Of a DNA stretch of 60,303 nt, positions 3,835-28,207 are shown piece after piece. The position numbers were made by a program, and so were the translations under genes. The notes beneath the pieces were generated by a model that had not been told where the DNA came from, made no database searches, and worked only from the letters and a program-made list of their open reading frames with translations. The stretch comes from Candidatus Nomurabacteria bacterium RIFCSPHIGHO2_12_FULL_42_19 (GTDB taxonomy: Bacteria; Patescibacteriota; Minisyncoccia; Phycocordibacterales; UBA9973). Location of the stretch: the NCBI GenBank assembly GCA_001786955.1, contig MFUM01000002.1, positions 3,923 through 64,225 of the forward strand, read 5' to 3'. Position 1 is the first letter of the stretch, and the number at the start of each line of letters is the position of its first letter.

Positions 3835-3913
3835 TTTTAGAAAGTCCGCATAATTTTCTGTTGAAAATTTGCTCAGGACTCAGCTCGTCGGCTTCCGTAG
3901 CCTTTCCAAAAAC
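3835..3913 (+). repeat. Repeat family F copy 1 (leader element upstream of yqeY)
   Basis: About 51 of 59 core positions identical to 14306..14380. Lies downstream of TGaTATAAT (3809..3817). Confidence 0.7.
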
Positions 3914-3937
3914 AATTTTCCGGCTCATAATAACATT

Positions 3938-4387
3938 ATGCTTCACGAACAAATAAAAAACGGAATAAAAGAGGCGATGATGGCGAAAGACAGTGTCCGA
4001 CTTGAAACGTATCGGGGGATGCTCGCTTCCTTTACCAACGAACTTGTTTCTAAAAACAGGAAGCCAAACGAAATGCTTGCGGATGAAGAAGCATTAGTTG
4101 TTATAACCAGGCTTTCTAAGCAAAGAAAAGATTCAATAGAACAATTCAGAAAAGGCAATCGCGAAGATTTGGTGAAAGAAGAACAGGCGCAGCTTGCTAT
4201 TTTGGAAACTTACTTGCCGAAATTGATGGACAAGAGCGAGATAGAGAAAATCGCGCTCCTAAAAAAAGACCAGCTTGGCATTTCCGACGGCACCGAAAAA
4301 GGCGCACTGATGTCCGCTTTGATGAAGGATCTGAGAGGCAAGGCAGACGGGGCTGTGGTAAAAGAAGTCGTGGATTCTCTCTTTTAA
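3938..4387 (+). CDS. yqeY: GatB/YqeY domain protein
   Basis: MLHEQIKNGIKEAMMAKDSVRLETYRGMLA... is typical of YqeY at about 149 aa; the ORF track start 3869 is an upstream extension. Confidence 0.8.
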   Translation: MLHEQIKNGIKEAMMAKDSVRLETYRGMLASFTNELVSKNRKPNEMLADEEALVVITRLSKQRKDSIEQFRKGNREDLVKEEQAQLAILETYLPKLMDKSEIEKIALLKKDQLGISDGTEKGALMSALMKDLRGKADGAVVKEVVDSLF

Positions 4388-6892: not shown

Positions 6893-8368
6893 ATGCCTGA
6901 TATTATGGAAAAAAAGTATTACCCGACAATTGGTCTTGAAATACACGCGGAATTAAAGACAAACACCAAGATGTTTTGCGCGTGCAAGAATGACCCGGAT
7001 GAGGAAAAACCGAATGTAAATATTTGCCCGGTCTGCATGGCGCATCCGGGAGCATTGCCGGTGCCGAATAAAAAAGCCATTGAAAATGTCATAAAAGTTG
7101 GCTTGGCATTAGGCGGCCAAATTGCCGATTTCACGGAGTTTGATCGCAAGAATTATTTTTATCCGGATATTCCGAAAGGCTACCAGATTTCCCAATATAA
7201 ATATCCGATAGTTTCCGGCGGAAAATTGCTGGGAACAGATATTACTCGTGTGCATTTGGAAGAGGATACAGGAACAAATAAACACATAGATAGCCCCCAG
7301 GTCGGACCTGTGGGCTCCCACAGGTCCGACCTGGGGGCGAATGGGTATTCGCTGATAGATTTCAATCGTGCCGGAGTGCCGCTGATGGAGCTGGTAACAG
7401 AACCGGCAATTCACAGCGCCAAAGAAGCCAGTGATTTTGCCCGTGAACTGCAACTTCTTTTGTGTTATCTTGATGTATCGGAAGCGAATATGGAGAAAGG
7501 AGAAATGAGGGTAGAAGCGAATATTTCCGTTTCACCGGATCCGAAAATTCTTGGCACGAAAGTAGAAGTAAAAAATTTAAATTCTTTCAGAAGCGTCGAG
7601 CGTGCCATCAAATACGAGCTTAATAGAATGACAAAGCTTTTAGAGGAAGGATTGGGAAATGAAATAGTGCAGGAGACTCGTGGCTGGGATGAAAGCAAAA
7701 GTGAAACTTTTTCCCAAAGAAAAAAAGAGGGGAGCGCGGATTACCGCTATTTTCCCGACCCTGATTTGCCGAAAATGAAATTGCATGAAGCATTTGATTT
7801 GGAAAAAATAAAAAAAGAATTGCCGGAACTGCCGGGGGCAAAGCGAGAGAGGTATAGAAAAGATTTTGGAATAAAAGATGAGGATATAGAAGTATATATA
7901 AATGGTTTGGAACTTGCCAAATGGTTTGAAGATGTGGCAAAAATCTTGGCCCAAAAAGATAGTATAAAGATTCTTTCTAACTACGTTACCTCAGATTATC
8001 TTGGATTCAAAAAGAATAACTCAGACATAAAATTACCAAGCTCTAAAAATTTTGTTGAACTTATAAATTTAGTTACAGAAAACAAAATCTCTTCTCGCGC
8101 CGCAAAAGATATTTTGGCAATGATTGTGATAAAAGATGAATCGCCGTTAAAAATCGCGACAGAAAAAGGTTTACTGCAAAGTAGTGACCCGGAAGCATTA
8201 AAAAAAATCGCGCAAAAAATTATTGATGCCAATCCGAAAACCGTAGCGGATTATAAGGGCGGAAAAGAACAGGCCCTTATGTCTCTCGTGGGAGTTATAA
8301 TGAAGGAAACCAAAGGCTCGGCGAATCCATCGGTTGCCAAGCAATTATTAATAGATTTATTGAAATGA
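6893..8368 (+). CDS. gatB: Asp/Glu-tRNA amidotransferase subunit B, carrying an in-frame palindromic insert
   Basis: IGLEIHAEL, CPVC, HLEEDTG, NRAGVPLMELVTEP, and a C-terminal YqeY-like domain. Confidence 0.95.
   Translation: MPDIMEKKYYPTIGLEIHAELKTNTKMFCACKNDPDEEKPNVNICPVCMAHPGALPVPNKKAIENVIKVGLALGGQIADFTEFDRKNYFYPDIPKGYQISQYKYPIVSGGKLLGTDITRVHLEEDTGTNKHIDSPQVGPVGSHRSDLGANGYSLIDFNRAGVPLMELVTEPAIHSAKEASDFARELQLLLCYLDVSEANMEKGEMRVEANISVSPDPKILGTKVEVKNLNSFRSVERAIKYELNRMTKLLEEGLGNEIVQETRGWDESKSETFSQRKKEGSADYRYFPDPDLPKMKLHEAFDLEKIKKELPELPGAKRERYRKDFGIKDEDIEVYINGLELAKWFEDVAKILAQKDSIKILSNYVTSDYLGFKKNNSDIKLPSSKNFVELINLVTENKISSRAAKDILAMIVIKDESPLKIATEKGLLQSSDPEALKKIAQKIIDANPKTVADYKGGKEQALMSLVGVIMKETKGSANPSVAKQLLIDLLK
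7294..7337. repeat. 44-nt perfect palindrome inside gatB
   Basis: CCCCCAGGTCGGACCTGTGGG-ct-CCCACAGGTCCGACCTGGGGG: 21-bp arms, about three quarters G+C, translated as SPQVGPVGSHRSDLGA. Confidence 0.9.
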
Positions 8369-10021: not shown

Positions 10022-11935
10022 ATGAAAGAAGAGATACAAAAATTTTTTAAAGGGGATACGGACGACAGCGAGGAGACGTTGGTAAAATATTCGCATGATG
10101 CGAGCCTGCTGGAAGTCAGGCCGGAGATTGTGCTTTTTCCGAAAGATTCGGAAGACGTCCAAAATTTGGTAAAATGGGCGGGAGAAAATAAAAATAAATA
10201 TCCCAACCTATCTATCACTCCAAGATGCGCGGGTACGGATATGTCCGGTGGGGCCATTGGGGAATCCATAATTTTAGATTTTAGCCGGTATATGAATAAA
10301 CTGATTGGCGGGCCGTTGCCGATTGATAATCCGCGGGGTTTCCAGATTCCCCATCCTTATCCTAAGCGGAAAAATACGGCTATTCAAAAATTCAAAAATT
10401 ATCCTCTGGTTCCTTCCTATCTTACAACCCAACCCGGGATGTTTTATCGGGATTTTGAAAAAATAACTTTGGAAAAAGGATTGATTTTGCCTTGTTATAC
10501 GGCATCCAAGAGCTTGAATGCGGTGGGGGGGATGTATGGCAATAATTCTGCCGGCGAACGGACTTTGAAATACGGCAAGATAGAGGATTATGTTTTGTCT
10601 GCCAAGGTAGTTTTTGCTGATGGGAATGAATATATTGTAAAGCCATTGACGCAGGATGAATTAAATAAAAAAATTACGCAAGGCGATTTTGAGGGAAACG
10701 TTTATAAAAATATTTTTGAATTGATAAAAGATAATGAAGAAGAAATAAAACAGGCAAAACCGGATGTGCATAAAAATTCCGCAGGATATTATATTTGGAA
10801 TGTAATAAATAATCAGATTGTAAAGAATTCAGAATGGCGTAAGTCCCACCCCGTAATCGGGGAAGGGTCAAGCCAGAGGAATTTTTTACAATCTGATGAA
10901 TTTTTTGACCTTAATAAATTACTTGTTGGTTCGCAGGGGACATTGGGCATTGTCACGGAAATAACTTTCAAGCTGATACCGGATAATAAACACTCGAAAT
11001 TGGTAGTAATTTTCATGAAAGATACGGAAATGCTTGGTCGCCTGGTGGATGAAATTTTAATGCTCAACCCTGAAACGCTTGAAACTTACGACGACAAAAC
11101 GATGAAGCTGGCTGTCAGATTTTTTCCGGATTTTTTGAAAAATAAAGGATTTTTAGGAATGGCTAAATTTATGTGGAGTTTCTTGCCGGAATTTTGGATG
11201 ATGATTACCGGCGGTTTCCCGAAACTGATTCTTCTGGCTGAATTTGCCGGAGATGACGAGGCTGAAGTACATAAGAAATGCGAGGCGCTCAAATCAAAGT
11301 TGAAAATTTTTAATCCCGACGTAAAGTCGGGATCCCGACTAAAAGCGTCGGGGTTAAAAGTCCATATTACCAGAAACGAAACAGAAGCAAATAAATATTG
11401 GGATATCAGAAGAGAAAGCTTCGCGTTATTGCGTAAGCACGTCCAAGGCATGCGCACCGCTCCTTTCATAGATGATATTATCGTTCGTCCGGAATTTTTA
11501 CCTAAATTTCTTCCGGAGCTGAATAATATTTTAAGCAAATACGATTTGACCTATACCTTGGCAGGACATGCCGGCGACGGCAATTTTCACATTATCCCGC
11601 TGATGGATTTCAAGCGTCCCGATACGGCAAAAATAATAATAGAGCTTGGGGAATCCGTGTATGACCTGGTAATAAAATATCACGGCTCAATTACCGCCGA
11701 ACACAATGACGGCCTGATCCGCACGCCCTATTTGCGCAAAATGTATGGAGATAGAATTGTTTTAATTTTTGAAGAGATCAAGAAAATTTTTGACTCCAAA
11801 AACATTTTCAATCCCGGGAAAAAAGTTCCAATTCTAATTCTTAATAAAAGTGGTCCCACCAACGGCGGGGCAGGCACTAAGGAATACATAGCAACACATA
11901 TTGCGGTGGAACATGATGCCAGTCATCATGTTTAG
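10022..11935 (+). CDS. FAD-linked oxidase (GlcD / D-lactate dehydrogenase family) carrying two repeat-element inserts
   Basis: FAD-binding PCMH region PRCAGTDMSGG; C-terminal GHAGDGNFH and GSITAEHNDG. Confidence 0.8.
   Translation: MKEEIQKFFKGDTDDSEETLVKYSHDASLLEVRPEIVLFPKDSEDVQNLVKWAGENKNKYPNLSITPRCAGTDMSGGAIGESIILDFSRYMNKLIGGPLPIDNPRGFQIPHPYPKRKNTAIQKFKNYPLVPSYLTTQPGMFYRDFEKITLEKGLILPCYTASKSLNAVGGMYGNNSAGERTLKYGKIEDYVLSAKVVFADGNEYIVKPLTQDELNKKITQGDFEGNVYKNIFELIKDNEEEIKQAKPDVHKNSAGYYIWNVINNQIVKNSEWRKSHPVIGEGSSQRNFLQSDEFFDLNKLLVGSQGTLGIVTEITFKLIPDNKHSKLVVIFMKDTEMLGRLVDEILMLNPETLETYDDKTMKLAVRFFPDFLKNKGFLGMAKFMWSFLPEFWMMITGGFPKLILLAEFAGDDEAEVHKKCEALKSKLKIFNPDVKSGSRLKASGLKVHITRNETEANKYWDIRRESFALLRKHVQGMRTAPFIDDIIVRPEFLPKFLPELNNILSKYDLTYTLAGHAGDGNFHIIPLMDFKRPDTAKIIIELGESVYDLVIKYHGSITAEHNDGLIRTPYLRKMYGDRIVLIFEEIKKIFDSKNIFNPGKKVPILILNKSGPTNGGAGTKEYIATHIAVEHDASHHV
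10812..10897. repeat. Repeat family C copy 1 (TIR-bearing element inside the FAD oxidase gene)
   Basis: 19-bp TIRs ATCAGATTGTAAAGAATTC / GAATTTTTTACAATCTGAT (1 mismatch) flank the core GGCGTAAGTCCCACCCCG..GGGGAAGGGT.AAGCC, which is shared with 28021..28101. Confidence 0.85.
11315..11361. repeat. Repeat family A copy 1 (double hairpin inside the FAD oxidase gene)
   Basis: CCCGACgtaaaGTCGGG-at-CCCGACtaaaagcGTCGGG-gTTAAAAGT; matches 21282..21328. Confidence 0.85.
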
Positions 11936-14287: not shown

Positions 14288-14305
14288 GTCCATTTTGAAT
14301 GTACT

Positions 14306-14380
14306 TTTTAGAGCACGAATATTTTTCTGCTGAAAAATTTCTCAAGACTCGGCTCGTCAGCCTCCGTAGCCTCCAAAAAG
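14306..14380 (+). repeat. Repeat family F copy 2 (between rpmE and prfA)
   Basis: Aligns with 3835..3913 (TTTTCTGyTGAAAA.TTT.CTCArGACTCrGCTCGTCrGCyTCCGTAGCC..TCCAAAAA). Confidence 0.7.
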
Positions 14381-14406: not shown

Positions 14407-15219
14407 ATGGATTGGCAAGAGTGGAAAAAAAATAAAGAAAATTCAGGGATAAAAGAATCGGGAACAGAGGAATTCCCGAATGAAATAGTGTTGGAAGTGC
14501 GGGCGGGCGCCGGCGGAGACGAAGCCTCGCTTTTCGCCTGGGAACTTGCGCATATGTATGAAAAATTTGCCGAAGCACAAGACTGGCTTTGGAAAGTTAA
14601 TTATGAATCAAAAAGCGATTTGAACGGCTACAAAGAAGCGAGTTTTGAAATAAAAGGAAAGGATGTTTTTAAAAAAATGCGTTACGAAACCGGCGTGCAC
14701 CGGGTGCAGAGAATTCCGGCAACCGAAAAAAACGGCCGGGTGCATACTTCCACTGCTTCGGTGGCTGTGCTTCCAATCAGAAAAAAAATAACTTTCCAAA
14801 TAAATCCAGCTGATTTTGAAATGGAATATTCTCGTTCCGGCGGAAAAGGCGGACAGAATGTAAACAAAGTTGAGACAGCAGTGCGCATCATCCATAAGCC
14901 GACGGGACTTGATGTTCGTTCCACTAACGAGCGAAGCCAATTAACAAACAGAGAAAAAGCGATGATGATTTTAACGGCAAAACTTCAGCAGCTGGAAGAA
15001 GAAAAAGAAGCCAGCAAGCATGCCGGTATCCGGAAGAATCAAATCGGCACCGGCGACCGCTCGGAAAAAATTCGTACTTATAATTTTCCGCAGGACCGCG
15101 TGACCGACCACCGCATCAAAAAATCCTGGCACAACCTGCCGAAAATAATGGAAGGGGATATCGGAAACATCATTGCCGACATAGAATCCGGCGCGGTGGG
15201 AGACGAAAGCGAAGAGTAA
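14407..15219 (+). CDS. prfA: Peptide chain release factor 1 lacking N-terminal domain 1
   Basis: PAT tripeptide (RIPATEKNGRVHTS) and GGQ (SGGKGGQNVNK). The protein starts about 15 aa before the LEVRAGAGGDEA block. Only 120 nt separate it from rpmE. Confidence 0.85.
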   Translation: MDWQEWKKNKENSGIKESGTEEFPNEIVLEVRAGAGGDEASLFAWELAHMYEKFAEAQDWLWKVNYESKSDLNGYKEASFEIKGKDVFKKMRYETGVHRVQRIPATEKNGRVHTSTASVAVLPIRKKITFQINPADFEMEYSRSGGKGGQNVNKVETAVRIIHKPTGLDVRSTNERSQLTNREKAMMILTAKLQQLEEEKEASKHAGIRKNQIGTGDRSEKIRTYNFPQDRVTDHRIKKSWHNLPKIMEGDIGNIIADIESGAVGDESEE

Positions 15220-20380: not shown

Positions 20381-21275
20381 AATAAAATCGGTAAAAAATA
20401 CGAAGAAAATCACCAAAGCGATGGAGCTTGTTTCCGCTTCCAAAATGAAGCGCGCGGTGGCATCAACTTTGGCTTCGCGTTTATATGCCGAGTATTCCTG
20501 GGAGATTCTCACATCTATTGCTAAAAATACAGAAGACATAAAACATCCGCTTTTTAATGAACGAGAAAAAAAGGATAATAAAAAAAATATTTTATTTATA
20601 CTGATTACATCCAATCGCGGACTTTGTGGCGCTTATAATGCTCAAATTATTAAAAAGGCTATTTTATTGCTAAAGCTCGATGAAGAAAATATTAATATAG
20701 ATTTTATGGCTATAGGCAAAAAGGGAGATACGGCAATGCGCCGCGTAGGCAAAAATATTATTGCCAGCTTCACTGATTTGCCGGACAATATATCCATCTC
20801 TAACATTCTTCCCATATCAAAATTAGCCATAGACGAATACAGTGCTTTTCATTACGACAAAGTTTTGGTTGCTTATACGGATTTTATTTCTGCCCTTACC
20901 CAAAAGCCAAATATAAAACAAATTCTGCCTATTTCTAAATCCAGCTTGAAAGAATTTTTAAACGATGTAGCCGGAGGTAGAAAGGAAACAGAAGACAAAA
21001 CTAATATTGAACAGAAAACAGATTATTTATTTGAAGGAAATCAAGATGAGTTGATTGGTTCTCTGGCTGAAAAAATTACCAGAATGCAAATTTATCAGAT
21101 GCTTCTTGAGTCCAATGCTTCGGAACAATCTTCCCGCATGGTGGCAATGAAAAATGCCAGCGAGGCTTCGGGAGAGATGATTGACGATTTGACTTTGGTA
21201 TTTAACAAAGCGAGACAGGCGAATATTACCAGAGAAATATCGGAAATTAGTGCGGGGATGGCGAGTGTTAGCTGA
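20352..21275 (+). CDS. atpG: F0F1 ATP synthase subunit gamma
   Basis: [26 protein letters not shown] ... ITREISEI. Confidence 0.93.
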
Positions 21276-21281
21276 GTTAGC

Positions 21282-21328
21282 CCCGACGTAAAGTCGGGGA
21301 GCCGACTGGAACGTCGGCTTTAAAAGTT
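21282..21328. repeat. Repeat family A copy 2 (atpG-atpD spacer)
   Basis: CCCGACgtaaaGTCGGG-ga-GCCGACtggaacGTCGGC-tTTAAAAGT. Confidence 0.85.
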
Positions 21329-21360
21329 ATAAACTTTATAAAGTTAAAAGTAATTATTAA

Positions 21361-22725
<1,365 letters not shown>

Positions 22726-22791
22726 ACCTCACCCCGTCTGCTTAATGCATCCACCCCTCTCCTTGGCAAGGAGAGGGGCAAGGGGTGAGGT
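22726..22791. repeat. Repeat family B copy 1 (atpD-atpC spacer)
   Basis: ACCTCACCCC...CCCCTCTCCTTGGCAAGGAGAGGGG...GGGGTGAGGT nested palindrome. Confidence 0.85.
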
Positions 22792-22799
22792 AATCACAC

Positions 22800-23324: not shown

Positions 23325-24047
23325 ATGTCTAAATTTTATGTTGTTGCGACTCCGATAGGGAACTTGGGGGACATTACGCTCCGGGCTATTGAGACGCTCA
23401 AAAGCGTTGATTTGATATTATGTGAGGATACGCGGGTCACGAAAAAACTTTTAGATAAATACGATATACATAAACCGACGATGAGTTATCCATCCGACGA
23501 TATCGTCGGAAAAAACTACAGACAGAGCAAGCTTGCCCAGAGCCCCAAGCTCAATAAAATTTTTGAATTATTGGAAGAAGGAAAAGATTTGGCCTTGGTG
23601 TCGGACGCAGGCACGCCGGGAATCTCCGACCCGGGAGCAATGCTTGTTTCTCAAATAAAAACTCATTTCAGCCATGACGTAAATGGGGAAGTTAAAGTTA
23701 TTCCGATTCCGGGAGCTTCGGCGGTTATTACCGCGTTGTCTGCGTCAGGATTACCTATTCACGAGTTTACATTTTTAGGTTTTCTGCCGCACAAAAAAGG
23801 CAGGGAAACGTTATTTAAAGAAATTACGCAGGCTAAAAGGACGATGATATTTTACGAGTCTCCGCACAGGATTTTAAAAACCTTGGAATCGCTCCAGAAA
23901 TTTTGCCCTGATAAGAAAGTCTGCATTGCGCGCGAACTGACGAAAATTTATGAAGAATTTAAAATTGGAACTCCGGCAGAAATTTTGGAATATTTTAATA
24001 AAAATAAAGATAAACAAAGAGGAGAGTTTACGGTAATAGTTGCCTAA
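23325..24047 (+). CDS. rsmI: 16S rRNA (cytidine1402-2'-O)-methyltransferase
   Basis: YVVATPIGNLGDITLRA, LVSDAGTPGISDPG, FLGFLP, YESPHR. Confidence 0.92.
   Translation: MSKFYVVATPIGNLGDITLRAIETLKSVDLILCEDTRVTKKLLDKYDIHKPTMSYPSDDIVGKNYRQSKLAQSPKLNKIFELLEEGKDLALVSDAGTPGISDPGAMLVSQIKTHFSHDVNGEVKVIPIPGASAVITALSASGLPIHEFTFLGFLPHKKGRETLFKEITQAKRTMIFYESPHRILKTLESLQKFCPDKKVCIARELTKIYEEFKIGTPAEILEYFNKNKDKQRGEFTVIVA
23493..23510. repeat. 18-nt perfect palindrome inside rsmI
   Basis: TCCGACGATATCGTCGGA (encodes SDDIVG). A second palindrome GCAAGCTTGC lies at 23526..23535. Confidence 0.7.
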
Positions 24048-24382: not shown

Positions 24383-26329
24383 TTACAATAGGTCCTCCGG
24401 GTCAACGAATACGTCAAAGTTGGGCGGAAGAGCGGCGAGTTTCTGGAGCAGGTTTTCATCTATGGACGAGCCGGCGGAAATTTCCGGCAAGGACCACTTT
24501 TTCGGGTCTATCTTTATCAGCGCATTGGTGGCATATTTGCCTTTGAGCCGCGCGATAAATCCGCTGAAAATTTCAGGATTGTATTCTTTAAAAATTTCTT
24601 CCAATACTTTTTTTGCTTTTATTGTTTGTTCTTTATCGCCTAAATGCGTAATTTTTATGAAACGCTTGAATGGCGGATAATCTAGATTTCTTCTGTCTTC
24701 TAATTCTTCCCGCACGAAAGACAATAAATTTTCCATTTTAATTGCCATAATTGCCGGGTCATTTTCTTTCTTAGTTTGAATAATAAGTTTTTCGGTTGTG
24801 CTGCCAATTACCGAAAGCATGATTTGAATGATTTTTTCACTCATTTTAAAATTCGGTATGTTCCAAAGCGAATCAAAAGAAGCGATAATTGATAACGAAA
24901 CTTTGTTTTTTAAATAGAAAAATGCCATTTCGGTGCCTATCAATATCGATCCGGGATTTTCTTCAAACTCCCTGATTATTTTTTCTGCGCCCTTGGCTGT
25001 TTTCGCAGAATCTTTATCTAATTTAAAAACCTCAACTTTTGTAAAATTTTCTTTAATAGATTCATATACAGTATCGGTGCCTATACCAAGAGGCACCAGA
25101 TTCCAGCTTCCGCAAGCGGCGCAGACGATTTCTCCATTCAAATCTGTTTCGCACCGGTTGCAGACAAATATCCTTTTTTTGCCCTGATGAGACGAATAAA
25201 GAACCAAAGGCGACCCGCATTTTTCACAGTCCACTATCTCGCCGCAGTCTTTGCATATAGTCATCGTCGCCAATCCTTTCCTCAATGAGAAAATAAAAAC
25301 ATTTTTCTTTTTGGTTGTCGTATTTTTAATTTCTTCCAGGCTTTTATCTTCCAAGATTTTAAATTTTTTCTCTTTATTTAAAATTTCTATTTCTCCGTCA
25401 AAATTAATTCTAAAAGAAAGCGGATGCATTGGATTTAATCCGTCCGTTTCTTGTCTCGCAATACTCTCATAACGAAGTAATGAATCGCCCAAGATGAATT
25501 TCGCATTGATTTTTGCCGCAAAAAGCTCTATAAAAAATCTCAAATCAAAATGAGGTTTTGCAATCATTTTATAAGCATTAGAACTTTCATGTTCCGCTAT
25601 GACGGTTCCGATATCATATCGTGGAATAGATAAAAATGGCGCAGTTCCGAGTATCAGCACCGGGTGAGCGAGAGTTATTATTTGCTCGATTTTTTTAATA
25701 ATTTTTTTTGAACTTGATCCCCCGTATATGGCAAAAGCGAATTTCTCGATTCCTTTAGAAAGAGATTCTTCAAAAATTCTTATATCGTATTCGGTTGGCA
25801 ATACTATGAAAACGGATTTTTTCAGGGCAAAAGATCCGCGAATTAAAGTTTTATAAGCCGAGATGCGGTCTTCAAGCGGCGCCTGGAAAATCAGCTTCTC
25901 GGGCTTTACCTCACCCCCGACCCCTCTCCTTGCCAAGGAGAGGGGTGCTGAAAGCGGGGTGAGGTTTGTATTCTTGAATTTAGCTATTTTGTCATAATTT
26001 TCCCGCAAGACAGTCGGAATTAAAGAAGTAATTCCGTCATTTTTGCCCGAAATAAAATATTTACTGGTTTCAATCGCCGAATCAAGATATTTTTTCAAAA
26101 AAATCGAACGTTCTTTTACTTCGCTTATTTTTTTCAAATTGAAAGACAAACCCTTTATGTTTGATTTTGCGAGAGCGACATCTTCCGAAGAGACAACTAA
26201 TCCTAAAATTTTTTTATTGCGCAAAGGGATAACCACGATACTTCCATTTGGAATATCCTGCGCGGTGAAATAAGTCAAGTCTTCTTTCCAAGCTCCCTTT
26301 TTAAGCGGGATTACCGTCACGATCTTCAT
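24383..26329 (-). CDS. priA: Primosomal protein N' (PriA helicase), carrying an in-frame repeat insert
   Basis: Cys-rich Zn insertion CKDCGEIVDCEKCGSPLV...CNRC...CAACGS; helicase lobes; C-terminal YPPF. Confidence 0.9.
   Translation of the reverse strand: MKIVTVIPLKKGAWKEDLTYFTAQDIPNGSIVVIPLRNKKILGLVVSSEDVALAKSNIKGLSFNLKKISEVKERSIFLKKYLDSAIETSKYFISGKNDGITSLIPTVLRENYDKIAKFKNTNLTPLSAPLSLARRGVGGEVKPEKLIFQAPLEDRISAYKTLIRGSFALKKSVFIVLPTEYDIRIFEESLSKGIEKFAFAIYGGSSSKKIIKKIEQIITLAHPVLILGTAPFLSIPRYDIGTVIAEHESSNAYKMIAKPHFDLRFFIELFAAKINAKFILGDSLLRYESIARQETDGLNPMHPLSFRINFDGEIEILNKEKKFKILEDKSLEEIKNTTTKKKNVFIFSLRKGLATMTICKDCGEIVDCEKCGSPLVLYSSHQGKKRIFVCNRCETDLNGEIVCAACGSWNLVPLGIGTDTVYESIKENFTKVEVFKLDKDSAKTAKGAEKIIREFEENPGSILIGTEMAFFYLKNKVSLSIIASFDSLWNIPNFKMSEKIIQIMLSVIGSTTEKLIIQTKKENDPAIMAIKMENLLSFVREELEDRRNLDYPPFKRFIKITHLGDKEQTIKAKKVLEEIFKEYNPEIFSGFIARLKGKYATNALIKIDPKKWSLPEISAGSSIDENLLQKLAALPPNFDVFVDPEDLL
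25908..25965. repeat. Repeat family B copy 2 (inside priA)
   Basis: ACCTCACCCCcgaCCCCTCTCCTTGCCAAGGAGAGGGGtgctgaaagcGGGGTGAGGT, translated as TPLSAPLSLARRGVGGEV. Confidence 0.85.
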
Positions 26330-27442: not shown

Positions 27443-28207
27443 ATGATTTCACAACATTTAGACAAAAATAACCTGCATCATGCATATTTGATAGAAGGTG
27501 CGCGTGGCGAGATTGTTCCAGAAATCGTAAAATTCCTGAAAAGTTTGGGCATAAATACCGTTGGCAATCCTGATTTTTGCCATATCGTAATTGATAATTT
27601 TAAAATTGATGAGGCATTTGACCTGCGCGCCATGTCTTCAAATAAAAGTTTCTCTTCTGTTAAAAAAGTATTTGTAATTTGCGTCAATAGTTTTTCTCTG
27701 GATGCCCAGAATGTCCTGCTTAAGATGTTTGAGGAGCCGATACAAAATACTCATTTTTTCCTGATTGTTCCGGATGCCAATGCTCTTTTAAAAACTCTCG
27801 TTTCCAGATTTTATTTAATTAAGCCGAAAGCGGAAGCGGGCGATGAATTAGAAGCGAAAAAATTTCTTGCCATGCCTTTAAAAAACAGAATTGATTTTAT
27901 TAAAGAATTATTGATTGAACCGGAAGAAAAAGATGAAGAGGGGAATGAAATTATCGCTTTAGATTCCACTCGTTCTAAAGCATTAAAATTTTTAAATGCG
28001 TTGGAGGGTGCTTTACATCGCAAGTTCCTGAAAAATTCTGCCGGCTTTACCCTTCCCCTTCGGGGTGGGACTTACGCCGCTCAGAATTTTTCAGGAACTT
28101 GCTTTGAGCATTTCTTCAAAGTCCGAGAATTTCTGCGTATGCCCGGTTCGTCCACGAAAAGCCTGATGGAATCAGTGGCATTAATTATACCTATTTTTAA
28201 AAATTAA
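27443..28207 (+). CDS. holB: DNA polymerase III delta'-like clamp-loader subunit, carrying an in-frame repeat insert
   Basis: LHHAYLIEG, KVFVI, LLKMFEEP, TLVSRF (SRC-like motif). Confidence 0.65.
   Translation: MISQHLDKNNLHHAYLIEGARGEIVPEIVKFLKSLGINTVGNPDFCHIVIDNFKIDEAFDLRAMSSNKSFSSVKKVFVICVNSFSLDAQNVLLKMFEEPIQNTHFFLIVPDANALLKTLVSRFYLIKPKAEAGDELEAKKFLAMPLKNRIDFIKELLIEPEEKDEEGNEIIALDSTRSKALKFLNALEGALHRKFLKNSAGFTLPLRGGTYAAQNFSGTCFEHFFKVREFLRMPGSSTKSLMESVALIIPIFKN
28021..28101. repeat. Repeat family C copy 2 (81-nt element with perfect 20-bp TIRs inside holB)
   Basis: CAAGTTCCTGAAAAATTCTG ... CAGAATTTTTCAGGAACTTG. The core is the reverse complement of the core at 10835..10876. Confidence 0.9.

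Follow-up and report, generated by a model that had tools for sequence, protein, structure and literature searches.

A double-hairpin repeat in genes and spacers of Patescibacteria, a candidate family of nonautonomous mobile elements

Rickettsia palindromic elements (RPE) were reportedly described by Ogata et al. in 2000 as “selfish DNA in protein-coding genes.” The ends of IS200/IS605 elements and of PATEs are moved by HUH Y1 transposases via single-stranded DNA (ssDNA). The Correia/NEMIS miniature inverted-repeat transposable elements (MITEs) of Neisseria have TA target duplications, measure 100 to 300 nt, and can alter mRNA processing, and the known attC sites of integrons measure 57 to 141 nt. 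Repetitive extragenic palindromes (REPs) are GC-rich imperfect palindromes of 20 to 40 nt, some families of which stand head to head with a spacer of 1 to 2 nt; the members of such a pair differ in their loops, forming a heterodimer, and REPs can be transcribed and are in some cases located within genes (PMC3733652). No dedicated transposase is known for the CGTC-type REPs, among which RPE-4 and RPE-6 are listed (PMC3733652). Here, we analyzed a 60,303-nt stretch of the genome of Candidatus Nomurabacteria bacterium RIFCSPHIGHO2_12_FULL_42_19 (assembly GCA_001786955.1, contig MFUM01000002.1, positions 3,923 to 64,225; hereafter, the window) in which a double hairpin of about 39 nt occurs twice, within a gene for an FAD-linked oxidase (copy A) and in the spacer between atpG and atpD (copy B). 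With a probability of roughly 0.6, we favor the reading that it belongs to a family of nonautonomous mobile elements, of the kind represented by REPs, MITEs, and RPE, that is patchily distributed across Patescibacteria (the candidate phyla radiation, CPR) and is moved by an enzyme acting in trans.

RPE are the closest to this element in behavior, through their in-frame insertion into open reading frames (ORFs). Both are dispersed palindromic repeats of reduced-genome bacteria, patchy between relatives, and both are found between genes, in RNA genes, and in frame within housekeeping ORFs, to which they add a short peptide. However, the CPR element is 39 to 45 nt long, compared with about 100 to 150 nt for the RPE family, spans a superphylum rather than one genus, is strictly in sense orientation within ORFs, and has a defined two-hairpin architecture with a bulged C; the two sequences, which were not directly compared, appear unrelated. 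In size and hairpin pairing, REPs and REPINs come closest, as the CPR element is likewise a doublet of short GC-rich imperfect palindromes. In contrast to REPs, it lacks both an unpaired GTAG or CGTC tag and a CCA tail (its CGTC consists of the bulged C and the first three stem bases, and its flanks are host TTAR and YTAA), its stems do not begin with the A-T pairs described for CGTC families, its copies number tens at most rather than hundreds, and many of them are intragenic or upstream of genes rather than mainly downstream. The ends of IS200/IS605 elements and PATEs share with it subterminal hairpins with extrahelical bases, the absence of a terminal duplication, and seamless gain and loss, and a short specific insertion sequence and a strand-specific orientation may be further parallels. 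In the CPR element, however, the hairpins abut with nothing between them, the extra bases are mirror symmetric rather than direct, and orientation seems to follow transcription rather than replication skew. Like Correia/NEMIS MITEs, it has terminal inverted repeats, would be nonautonomous, and is cotranscribed with its neighbors, but at about 40 nt it is much shorter, and the missing target duplication excludes a classical MITE. Full-text literature searches, which included the literal sequence and the peptide motifs, returned no description of the element in Patescibacteria.

Insertions in the oxidase gene and in the atpG-atpD spacer

Copy A (CCCGACGTAAAGTCGGGATCCCGACTAAAAGCGTCGGGGTTAAAAGT; window positions 11315 to 11361) lies in sense orientation within the ORF at 10022 to 11935, which encodes an FAD-linked oxidase of 637 residues, and is translated as NPDVKSGSRLKASGLKV. 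Its first hairpin (T-CCCGAC GTAAA GTCGGG-A; 11314 to 11332, plus strand), read from the sequence and from the model alignment described below, has a 7-bp stem and a 5-nt loop, and its closing pair covaries between C-G and U-A across the family. The second hairpin (TCCCGAC-T AAA G-(C bulge)-GTCGGGG; 11333 to 11353, plus strand) was delimited by protein alignment and by comparison of filled and empty sites at the nucleotide level. Together, the two hairpins (11315 to 11353) form an exact in-frame insert of 39 nt, or 13 residues (PDVKSGSRLKASG). This segment is gapped in 18 of the 23 oxidase orthologs that we aligned (alignment A1; 68 to 100% identity), so copy A is an insertion, as the comparison suggested by an earlier note on this DNA could reveal. 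Three other orthologs carry the segment, reading PDVKSGPRPNASG or PDIKSGSQPNASG, and the residues on either side (..F-K/N and L-K-V-H-I-T) are kept in nearly all orthologs.

The same boundaries are seen in the nucleotide sequences. The filled site consists of TTTTTAAT, the 39 nt, and TTAAAAGTC, and two empty sites read GACTTTAAA/TTAAAAGTT (that is, TTTAAA/TTAAAAGTT; locus L125) and TTTTTAAC/ATAAAAACT (locus L124), where the slash marks the insertion point. No target-site duplication accompanies copy A: a duplication of TTAA, TTA, or TA would demand 44 nt and a broken frame and is therefore incompatible with a net in-frame insert of 39 nt between preexisting TTTAAN and TTAAAAG. The earlier note had counted TTAAAAGT (11354 to 11361, plus strand) as part of the repeat, but this octamer is host sequence that is already present at the empty oxidase and atp sites. 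In the oxidase it supplies the codons Leu-Lys-Val, which are conserved in nearly all orthologs whether or not they have the insert, and it forms the 3' half of the insertion target, outside the element. Because both window copies stand immediately 5' of it, the octamer looked like a component of the repeat.

The four oxidase carriers are not mutual closest relatives in a neighbor-joining tree of ungapped columns, suggesting that the site has been hit repeatedly, that the element has been lost precisely, or that it has been exchanged by recombination. In one carrier (L002), a G-to-A change breaks the stem of hairpin 2 and the loop of hairpin 1 is also altered, indicating that coding copies can decay. 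The 13-residue loop encoded by copy A falls within a hypervariable region of the oxidase and could not be placed on a solved structure because homologs in the PDB fail to align there. Ortholog lengths range from 557 to 646 residues owing to at least five separate hypervariable insertion points in alignment A1, and the position of copy A holds other inserts in some orthologs (ARGGPALGWKD in P0033 and NFSAKGELVSGWK in P0008). The gene has indeed been hit twice, as the earlier note proposed. A second, unrelated insert, its “family C” (..GGCGTAAGTCCCACCCCG-loop-CGGGGAAGGG..), lies in frame at 10823 to 10880, about 420 to 490 nt upstream of copy A; its 29 residues are absent from six orthologs, and many other orthologs have a related KNFSGLTLPGVPGGTHTVQNS-type insert at this position. 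The partner copy of family C (28045 to 28091, with the repeat match at 28061 to 28091) is inverted and lies inside the ORF at 27443 to 28207.

Copy B (CCCGACGTAAAGTCGGGGAGCCGACTGGAACGTCGGCTTTAAAAGT; 21282 to 21328) occupies a 94-nt spacer between the atpG stop codon at 21275 and the atpD start codon at 21370, with 52 nt separating it from the latter. Its minimum-energy fold is two tandem hairpins. The first (C-CCCGAC GTAAA GTCGGG-G; 21281 to 21299, plus strand) is read from the sequence and the model and the second (AGCCGAC-T GGA A-(C bulge)-GTCGGCT; 21300 to 21319, plus strand) from the sequence, covariation, and the model alignment; the outer pairs of the latter differ from those of copy A in a compensatory manner. 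By comparison with relatives, the adjoining TTTAAAAGT (21320 to 21328, plus strand) is preexisting spacer sequence, that is, target. Among 80 loci with atpG relatives from metagenomes, we examined 18 of the closest and could delimit the spacer in 15 (atpG identity, 52 to 78%); the element was absent from all 15 of these orthologous spacers, so that copy B is an insertion specific to its lineage. Several relatives have AGTTAA/AAGTTAT(A/C)AAGTT directly after the atpG stop codon (spacers ...AGTTAAAAGTTAT...), and copy B adjoins TTTAAAAGTTATAAAC on its 5' side.

Copy B is almost certainly part of the atp operon transcript. A role as terminator or attenuator is unlikely, as the hairpins are followed by TTAAAAG rather than by a T/U tract, no promoter-like or terminator-like site was called in or around the spacer (20900 to 21700 for terminators), other copies lie in divergent spacers and in ORFs, and copy B is missing from every relative examined. 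This last finding also makes an essential role unlikely, although copy B could modestly influence how stable the atpD segment is. We do not favor the intra-operon role in processing or attenuation that the earlier note suggested. The sequence immediately 5' of copy B (21267 to 21281; GTTAGC-TGA-GTTAGC, corresponding to ..AGTTAA in relatives) contains a near-duplication that supplies the atpG stop codon. Past that TGA, the frame is open through copy B to the TAA in CTTTAA, so the element would have extended AtpG without the TGA.

Architecture and distribution of the family

The two window sequences are exactly as the earlier note gave them and belong to one family. A covariance model (R1) scored copies A and B at 68.2 and 66.8 bits (E = 6e-16 and 1e-15), values that arise partly by construction because both were among the 27 copies from which R1 was built; the next match in the window had an E value of 0.1, and the reverse strands of the two copies scored 20 to 28 bits lower. 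Folding z scores against shuffled sequences were -7.7 for copy A and -5.4 for copy B. The pattern CCGAC-N3-9-GTCGG occurs five times in the window, compared with 0.10 expected, and none of 100 shuffles reached five. This enrichment, together with at least 39 double hairpins in the species-level genome collection that have the exact first hairpin and with the covariation described below, agrees with the proposal of a repeat family beyond chance. The proposed profile scan showed the two window copies to be significant and detected no third significant copy in the window or in about 14 kb of flank beyond its ends (two copies in about 74 kb). Three further places at which the stem core had been pointed out do contain it literally but are not significant members. 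The rsmI palindrome (23493 to 23510) is a single hairpin with an E value of 0.1. The rmuC site (1151 to 1183) was not found by the model, and by our own estimate chance alone should yield about four shared 10-mers like the one noted there across both strands of 60 kb. The gatB palindrome (7293 to 7340, inside the ORF at 6893 to 8368), with 21-nt arms (CCCCCAGGTCGGACCTGTGGG-CT-CCCACAGGTCCGACCTGGGGG), is a distinct perfect palindrome that merely contains GTCGG/CCGAC.

A structural alignment of 27 short-loop copies (alignment A2) yielded the consensus uA[R][Y]CCCGAC-GUAAA-GUCGGG[R] nnCCGAC-n-(3-5 nt)-n'-C-GUCGGn'n' [Y]U[A/C]A. The element thus consists of two adjacent hairpins, CCCGAC-GTAAA-GTCGGG and then nnCCGAC-variable loop-(bulged C)GTCGGnn, each of 17 to 21 nt and 0 to 1 nt apart, with mirrored extra bases (CCGAC-G ... 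C-GTCGG); the whole is a quasi-palindrome of about 39 to 45 nt with terminal inverted repeats YCCCGACG...CGTCGGGR. In this two-hairpin structure, 99% of the cells of the alignment are paired. All four variable pairs covary (4-22, CG12/UA11; 23-44, CG12/UA9/AU2/UG2/GC1; 24-43, CG19/GC5/UA2; 30-36, CG20/UA3/AU1/UG1), the observed covariation score was reached in none of 500 shuffles, and slid controls fell to 27 to 52% paired. The search patterns prescribed hairpin 1 and, in hairpin 2, the CCGAC/GTCGG core, but the fifth core pair also covaries in model matches outside that selection (CCGAT/ATCGG, CCGAA/TTCGG, and CCCGAG/CTCGGG). Two further features are free of this ascertainment: every one of 39 copies has an unpaired C directly before the 3' arm of hairpin 2, and a G follows the 5' arm of hairpin 1 in seven of eight independent copies.

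Although a nested single hairpin is the energy minimum for copy A, it is the tandem fold that is conserved, because the outer bases of hairpin 2 covary with their partners inside that hairpin rather than with bases of hairpin 1. A third helix closed by the flanks was rejected, being paired in only 64%. The loop of hairpin 2 varies from 5 to 28 nt, with the longer loops able to pair internally, and this variation suggests recognition of a folded single strand (RNA or ssDNA) rather than of a double-stranded site with fixed spacing. Rfam 15 contains no match (best E = 0.37, far under the gathering score), which argues against a known RNA family.

To place the family among genomes, we used an exact search for the 17-mer of hairpin 1 (CCCGACGTAAAGTCGGG) in one genome per species (596 Gb), which gave at least 120 loci, and examined locus fragments of up to 21 kb of each genome; by our own 4^17 estimate, chance would supply about 70 matches in 596 Gb and one or two in the CPR share. 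Among the matches listed, the complete double hairpin occurs at at least 36 loci, 30 of which are labeled as CPR lineages (Saccharibacteria, Paceibacteria/Nomurabacteria, Nealson- and Jorgensenbacteria, and unclassified Patescibacteria or Parcubacteria). The other six are, by their labels as given, “bacterium” in three cases and third-party metagenome-assembled genomes of other phyla in three. At about eight more loci, the core of the second hairpin is a variant. In 854 kb of CPR DNA chosen only for atpG, R1 found two matches (L133 and L135), compared with two in the 60-kb window, and a loose regular expression found one double hairpin. Extra copies are present in loci that were already positive (L062, L016, L011, L029, L080, and L020, the last with six or so within 2 kb). 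The clustering of these copies and the rate of two per 854 kb suggest that some genomes have many copies and most have none or few.

The 17-mer also turned up in other contexts. It lies inside the own multicopy repeats of non-CPR genomes of Bacteroidales, Planctomycetota, and Pedobacter (L005, L025, L036, L056, L057, L070, L083, L091, L094, L096, L115, L120, and L122; L023, L045, L076, L089, and L097). A Bacteroidales metagenome-assembled genome, for example, has at least 13 copies of ..CCCACCCCTACACCT-17-mer-ACAAGCTCTCCAAGGAGGGGAA.., and a Planctomycetota genome has the long palindrome GGGTAAGTCCCGATGTAT-17-mer-ATACATCGGGACTTACCC. Other matches are single hairpins after genes or at tRNA anticodon-arm positions. 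We treated these single hairpins and the non-CPR repeats as unrelated or of doubtful kinship. In some CPR genomes (L009:7837, L012:4562, and L085:1495), hairpin 1 tips another composite repeat, with arms of the GTCATTGCGAGG.. and ..GCAATC types.

Genomic settings, target, and orientation

In addition to the sense copy in the window’s FAD oxidase, in-frame copies are found in an IleRS-like protein (L008), RNase HII (L050, where about 23 residues are extra relative to solved structures), NusA (twice, L062), RpoB (L080), the N-terminal region of RpoD (L010), an N-terminal extension of ribosomal protein L23 (rplW; L102), AtpG (L135, a degenerate copy), and an RNase T-like exonuclease (L001:3679). 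The encoded peptides read PDVKSG(S/P)R..ASG or (S/P)RRKVG(T/I/A)PT.AS(G/E). Two coding copies use the third frame, and in these an altered hairpin 1 loop removes the TAA stop codon; decay is seen in the copies of L002 and L135. All of the approximately 10 independent coding sites are in sense orientation. Avoidance of stop codons was rejected as the cause, since the consensus is open in all three antisense frames but in only two sense frames.

Intergenic copies with a gene close downstream point in the direction of that gene in about 15 of 17 cases. Nine intergenic copies end 17 to 25 nt before an ATG, those of tuf, rpoA, dnaK (in two genomes), rplF, and an S1-like gene among them. Approximately seven copies lie in divergent spacers and two in convergent ones, indicating an association with the downstream gene rather than with the 3' end of the upstream gene. 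GC skew is positive on the element strand in only 26 of 39 cases, which argues against replication-strand bias as the sole cause of orientation; most coding sequence is on the element strand in 31 of 39, and the elements of L054 and L100 are codirectional with the neighboring gene but opposed to the local skew. On these small numbers, transcription accounts for orientation better than replication does.

In the flanks of 38 copies, the closing base is preceded by T(20) T(22) A(32) R(36), with the A at -3 and the R at -2, and the element is followed by Y, T(26), A/C, A(29). The target is AT rich and looks roughly palindromic, TTAR/YTAA, with both flanks equally biased. All five tRNA-linked copies are also in sense orientation, and in each the element lies inside a short 5' duplicate (positions 1 to about 15 to 24) of the adjacent intact tRNA gene (Arg, L037:4755-4883; Thr, L100:3285-3412; Met, L058:4938-5078; Phe, L034:2752-2895; Ile, L133:5176-5327). 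The insertion point within the duplicate is in the D arm, ..TAGC/CTCA.. (TAGC to (C)TCA), and the intact tRNA follows 5 to 25 nt further on; the duplicate in L037 starts 7 nt past a TATAAT. The resemblance of the D-arm sequence GTAGC/TCA to the target can explain why the D arm is hit recurrently but not why the tRNA start is duplicated.

The pattern in stable RNAs suggests that a single hairpin can invade a helix tip or take its place. The RNase P RNA of L093 (2256 to 2637) has the 17-mer as P3, its reverse complement as P12, and CUCCGACGGUAACGUCGGAG (a CCGACG/CGUCGG stem) as P18, the RNase P RNA at L046:3773-4158 has the 17-mer as P3, and a Saccharibacteria 23S rRNA gene (L092:6899-8000) holds two copies in opposite orientations. 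Insertions are nested in L015 and in the pseudo-tRNAs of L020. In the latter, a Saccharibacteria locus, two tRNA-Thr-like pseudogenes (420 to 660 and 1749 to 1860) contain five or six elements, which include hairpins that lie within another copy's GTAAA loop and hairpins with the variant cores CCCGAG/CTCGGG and CCCGAA/TTCGGG.

The window contains other repeats. A 42-nt inverted pair (CACCCCTCTCCTTGGCAAGGAGAGGGGCAAGGGGTGAGGTAA; 22752 to 22793 and 25906 to 25947), 93% complementary and with each member itself a hairpin, is probably a third small repeat family; one member lies just past the atpD stop codon and the other inside the ORF at 24383 to 26329 on the minus strand. A 68-nt direct repeat (3836 to 3903 and 14305 to 14372; 79% identical) lies at or just before the starts of the ORFs at 3869 to 4387 and 14407 to 15219 and may represent a leader, a promoter, or an N-terminal coding segment that the two have in common. 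A protein identical to the window’s RmuC is encoded on GCA_001786115.1, and the names of the oxidase homologs likewise point to a Nomurabacteria/Paceibacteria-type member of the Patescibacteria.

Mobility, alternative explanations, and significance

Precise presence and absence at orthologous sites, carriers that are not monophyletic, patchiness clustered by genome, nesting, decay, and tolerance within essential ORFs together form the signature of a nonautonomous mobile repeat. Such an element would insert without target duplication into TTAR/YTAA, as in the two window insertions directly 5' of TTAAAAGT, and its copies may persist only where they are harmless, that is, in short spacers that leave at least about 17 nt to the start codon, at the helix tips of stable RNAs, and in frame within variable protein loops, which would be tolerated because two of the three sense frames are open. 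A trans-acting enzyme that recognizes the folded single strand would be expected to keep the stem core, the bulged base, and structure-preserving substitutions. The best-fitting candidate is an HUH transposase of the IS200/IS605 or REP-associated tyrosine transposase (RAYT) type acting on ssDNA, possibly on the nontemplate strand of highly transcribed genes, as HUH single-strand transposition best matches an element that is gained and lost seamlessly and leaves no target duplication. That copies are in sense only and prefer highly transcribed genes may reflect either insertion into an exposed nontemplate strand or selection on RNA. The distance of 17 to 25 nt to the start codon is most simply read as a filter against hairpins that block initiation, since the leaders that we looked at show no Shine-Dalgarno sequence and a hairpin nearer the ATG would probably block initiation and be purged.

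Several observations weigh against mobility. Copy number is roughly 1 per 30 kb even in positive genomes, which is low for REPs or MITEs. The window, among the best 25 of its 81 Pfam families, contains no transposase, RAYT, or autonomous parent and otherwise encodes housekeeping genes, and viral contigs yielded no double hairpin and only four single-hairpin matches, a result that also speaks against a phage vector. The 5' partial duplications of tRNAs fit no standard model of transposition, and an orientation that follows the gene rather than GC skew is an ill fit to a simple lagging-strand IS200/IS605 model and is equally expected under RNA selection. Finally, the same hairpin 1 in very distant CPR classes, the compensatory change that distinguishes the copies upstream of dnaK in L027 and L103, and the placement before highly expressed genes could all reflect function instead. 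A DNA-uptake sequence was rejected because the copies are far too few and too patchy.

A competing explanation, which we consider unlikely overall but the strongest of the competitors, is a cis-acting RNA module under selection. Here the double hairpin, transcribed in sense within 5' leaders and intercistronic regions of highly expressed genes, would stabilize the 5' end, mark where processing occurs, or be bound by a conserved CPR protein. Copy B would then set the ratio of atpG to atpD expression, and coding copies would be by-products. The strong sense bias that follows the local gene and not GC skew, the nine copies 17 to 25 nt before an ATG (tuf, rpoA, dnaK twice, rplF, and an S1-like gene), and the ties to the downstream gene seen in about seven divergent versus about two convergent spacers are consistent with it, as are covariation that includes G-U pairs, the dnaK-upstream pair L027/L103, in which the compensatory change stands between unalignable flanks, and a stem kept intact by two changes (L029:229-275). 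However, copy B is missing from the same spacer in 15 relatives, only two copies occur in 854 kb of unselected CPR DNA, and at least eight unrelated proteins have in-frame copies; coding copies decay, insertions are nested, stable RNAs hold single hairpins in both orientations, and Rfam offers no match. The spacing before start codons can be explained by purging of copies that occlude ribosome landing in leaders without a Shine-Dalgarno sequence. The two explanations may also coexist, with the mobile element domesticated at some sites.

A folded recombination site, similar to an integron attC site or to those of Xer-dependent elements (Xer/IMEX-like), would have the flanks ..TTAAC and GTTAA.. 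as its cores, the bulges as its marks, and the element as an “empty cassette.” Precise insertion without duplication, conserved extrahelical bases, the resemblance of the palindromic TTAR/YTAA flanks to the attC cores RYYYAAC/GTTRRRY, and the nested long hairpin that is the energy minimum of copy A all recall such sites. We nevertheless regard this as improbable, because the flanks are host sequence that empty sites have as well, the covarying pairs are those of two tandem hairpins and not of one long hairpin, the flank helix is paired in only 64%, copies are solitary and dispersed rather than in arrays next to an integrase, and the element is shorter than known attC sites. It is more improbable still, indeed barely credible, that the copies are terminators, structural hairpins, or chance palindromes that converged without common origin. 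GC-rich stems with GNRA-like loops are intrinsically favored, and the 17-mer does occur as single hairpins in unrelated phyla, in tRNA anticodon arms, and after genes in phage contigs, but two hairpins with the same linker length, bulged C, and flank profile recur at least 39 times, the window has 5 CCGAC-N3-9-GTCGG hairpins versus 0.1 expected, and the model E values contradict convergence. Moreover, the copies have no T run or terminator call and lie in ORFs and divergent spacers.

We return, then, to a tiny mobile element as the preferred explanation. A bolder version of it, which we advance tentatively and consider doubtful, is that the double hairpin of about 39 nt is superphylum wide and that its insertion is coupled to transcription, in sense only, into the exposed nontemplate strand of the most transcribed genes. 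Some intergenic copies would then have been domesticated, the enzyme would be a new HUH or recombinase partnership or a new enzyme altogether, and the extra protein loops and RNA helices of CPR would find an explanation. If this version is true, a transcription-coupled element would be a general source of extra loops in RpoB, RpoD, NusA, IleRS, and AtpG and of extra helices in CPR rRNA, RNase P RNA, and the leaders of tRNA genes.

Patescibacteria make up a large share of bacterial diversity, are known almost entirely from sequence, and have proteins and RNAs full of unexplained insertions. The element described here explains part of that variation, as it occurs in frame in essential genes, before highly expressed genes, and in genes for stable RNAs. 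Annotators should be aware that 13-residue loops reading PDVKSG...ASG or RRKVG.PT.ASG are derived from a repeat. The element is also a marker of recent genomic change in organisms that are regarded as static and streamlined, and it provides a substrate that can be searched with a model in the quest for the mobilizing enzyme. If its sense rule reflects transcription-coupled insertion or RNA function, it would offer an experimental handle in the few tractable Saccharibacteria.

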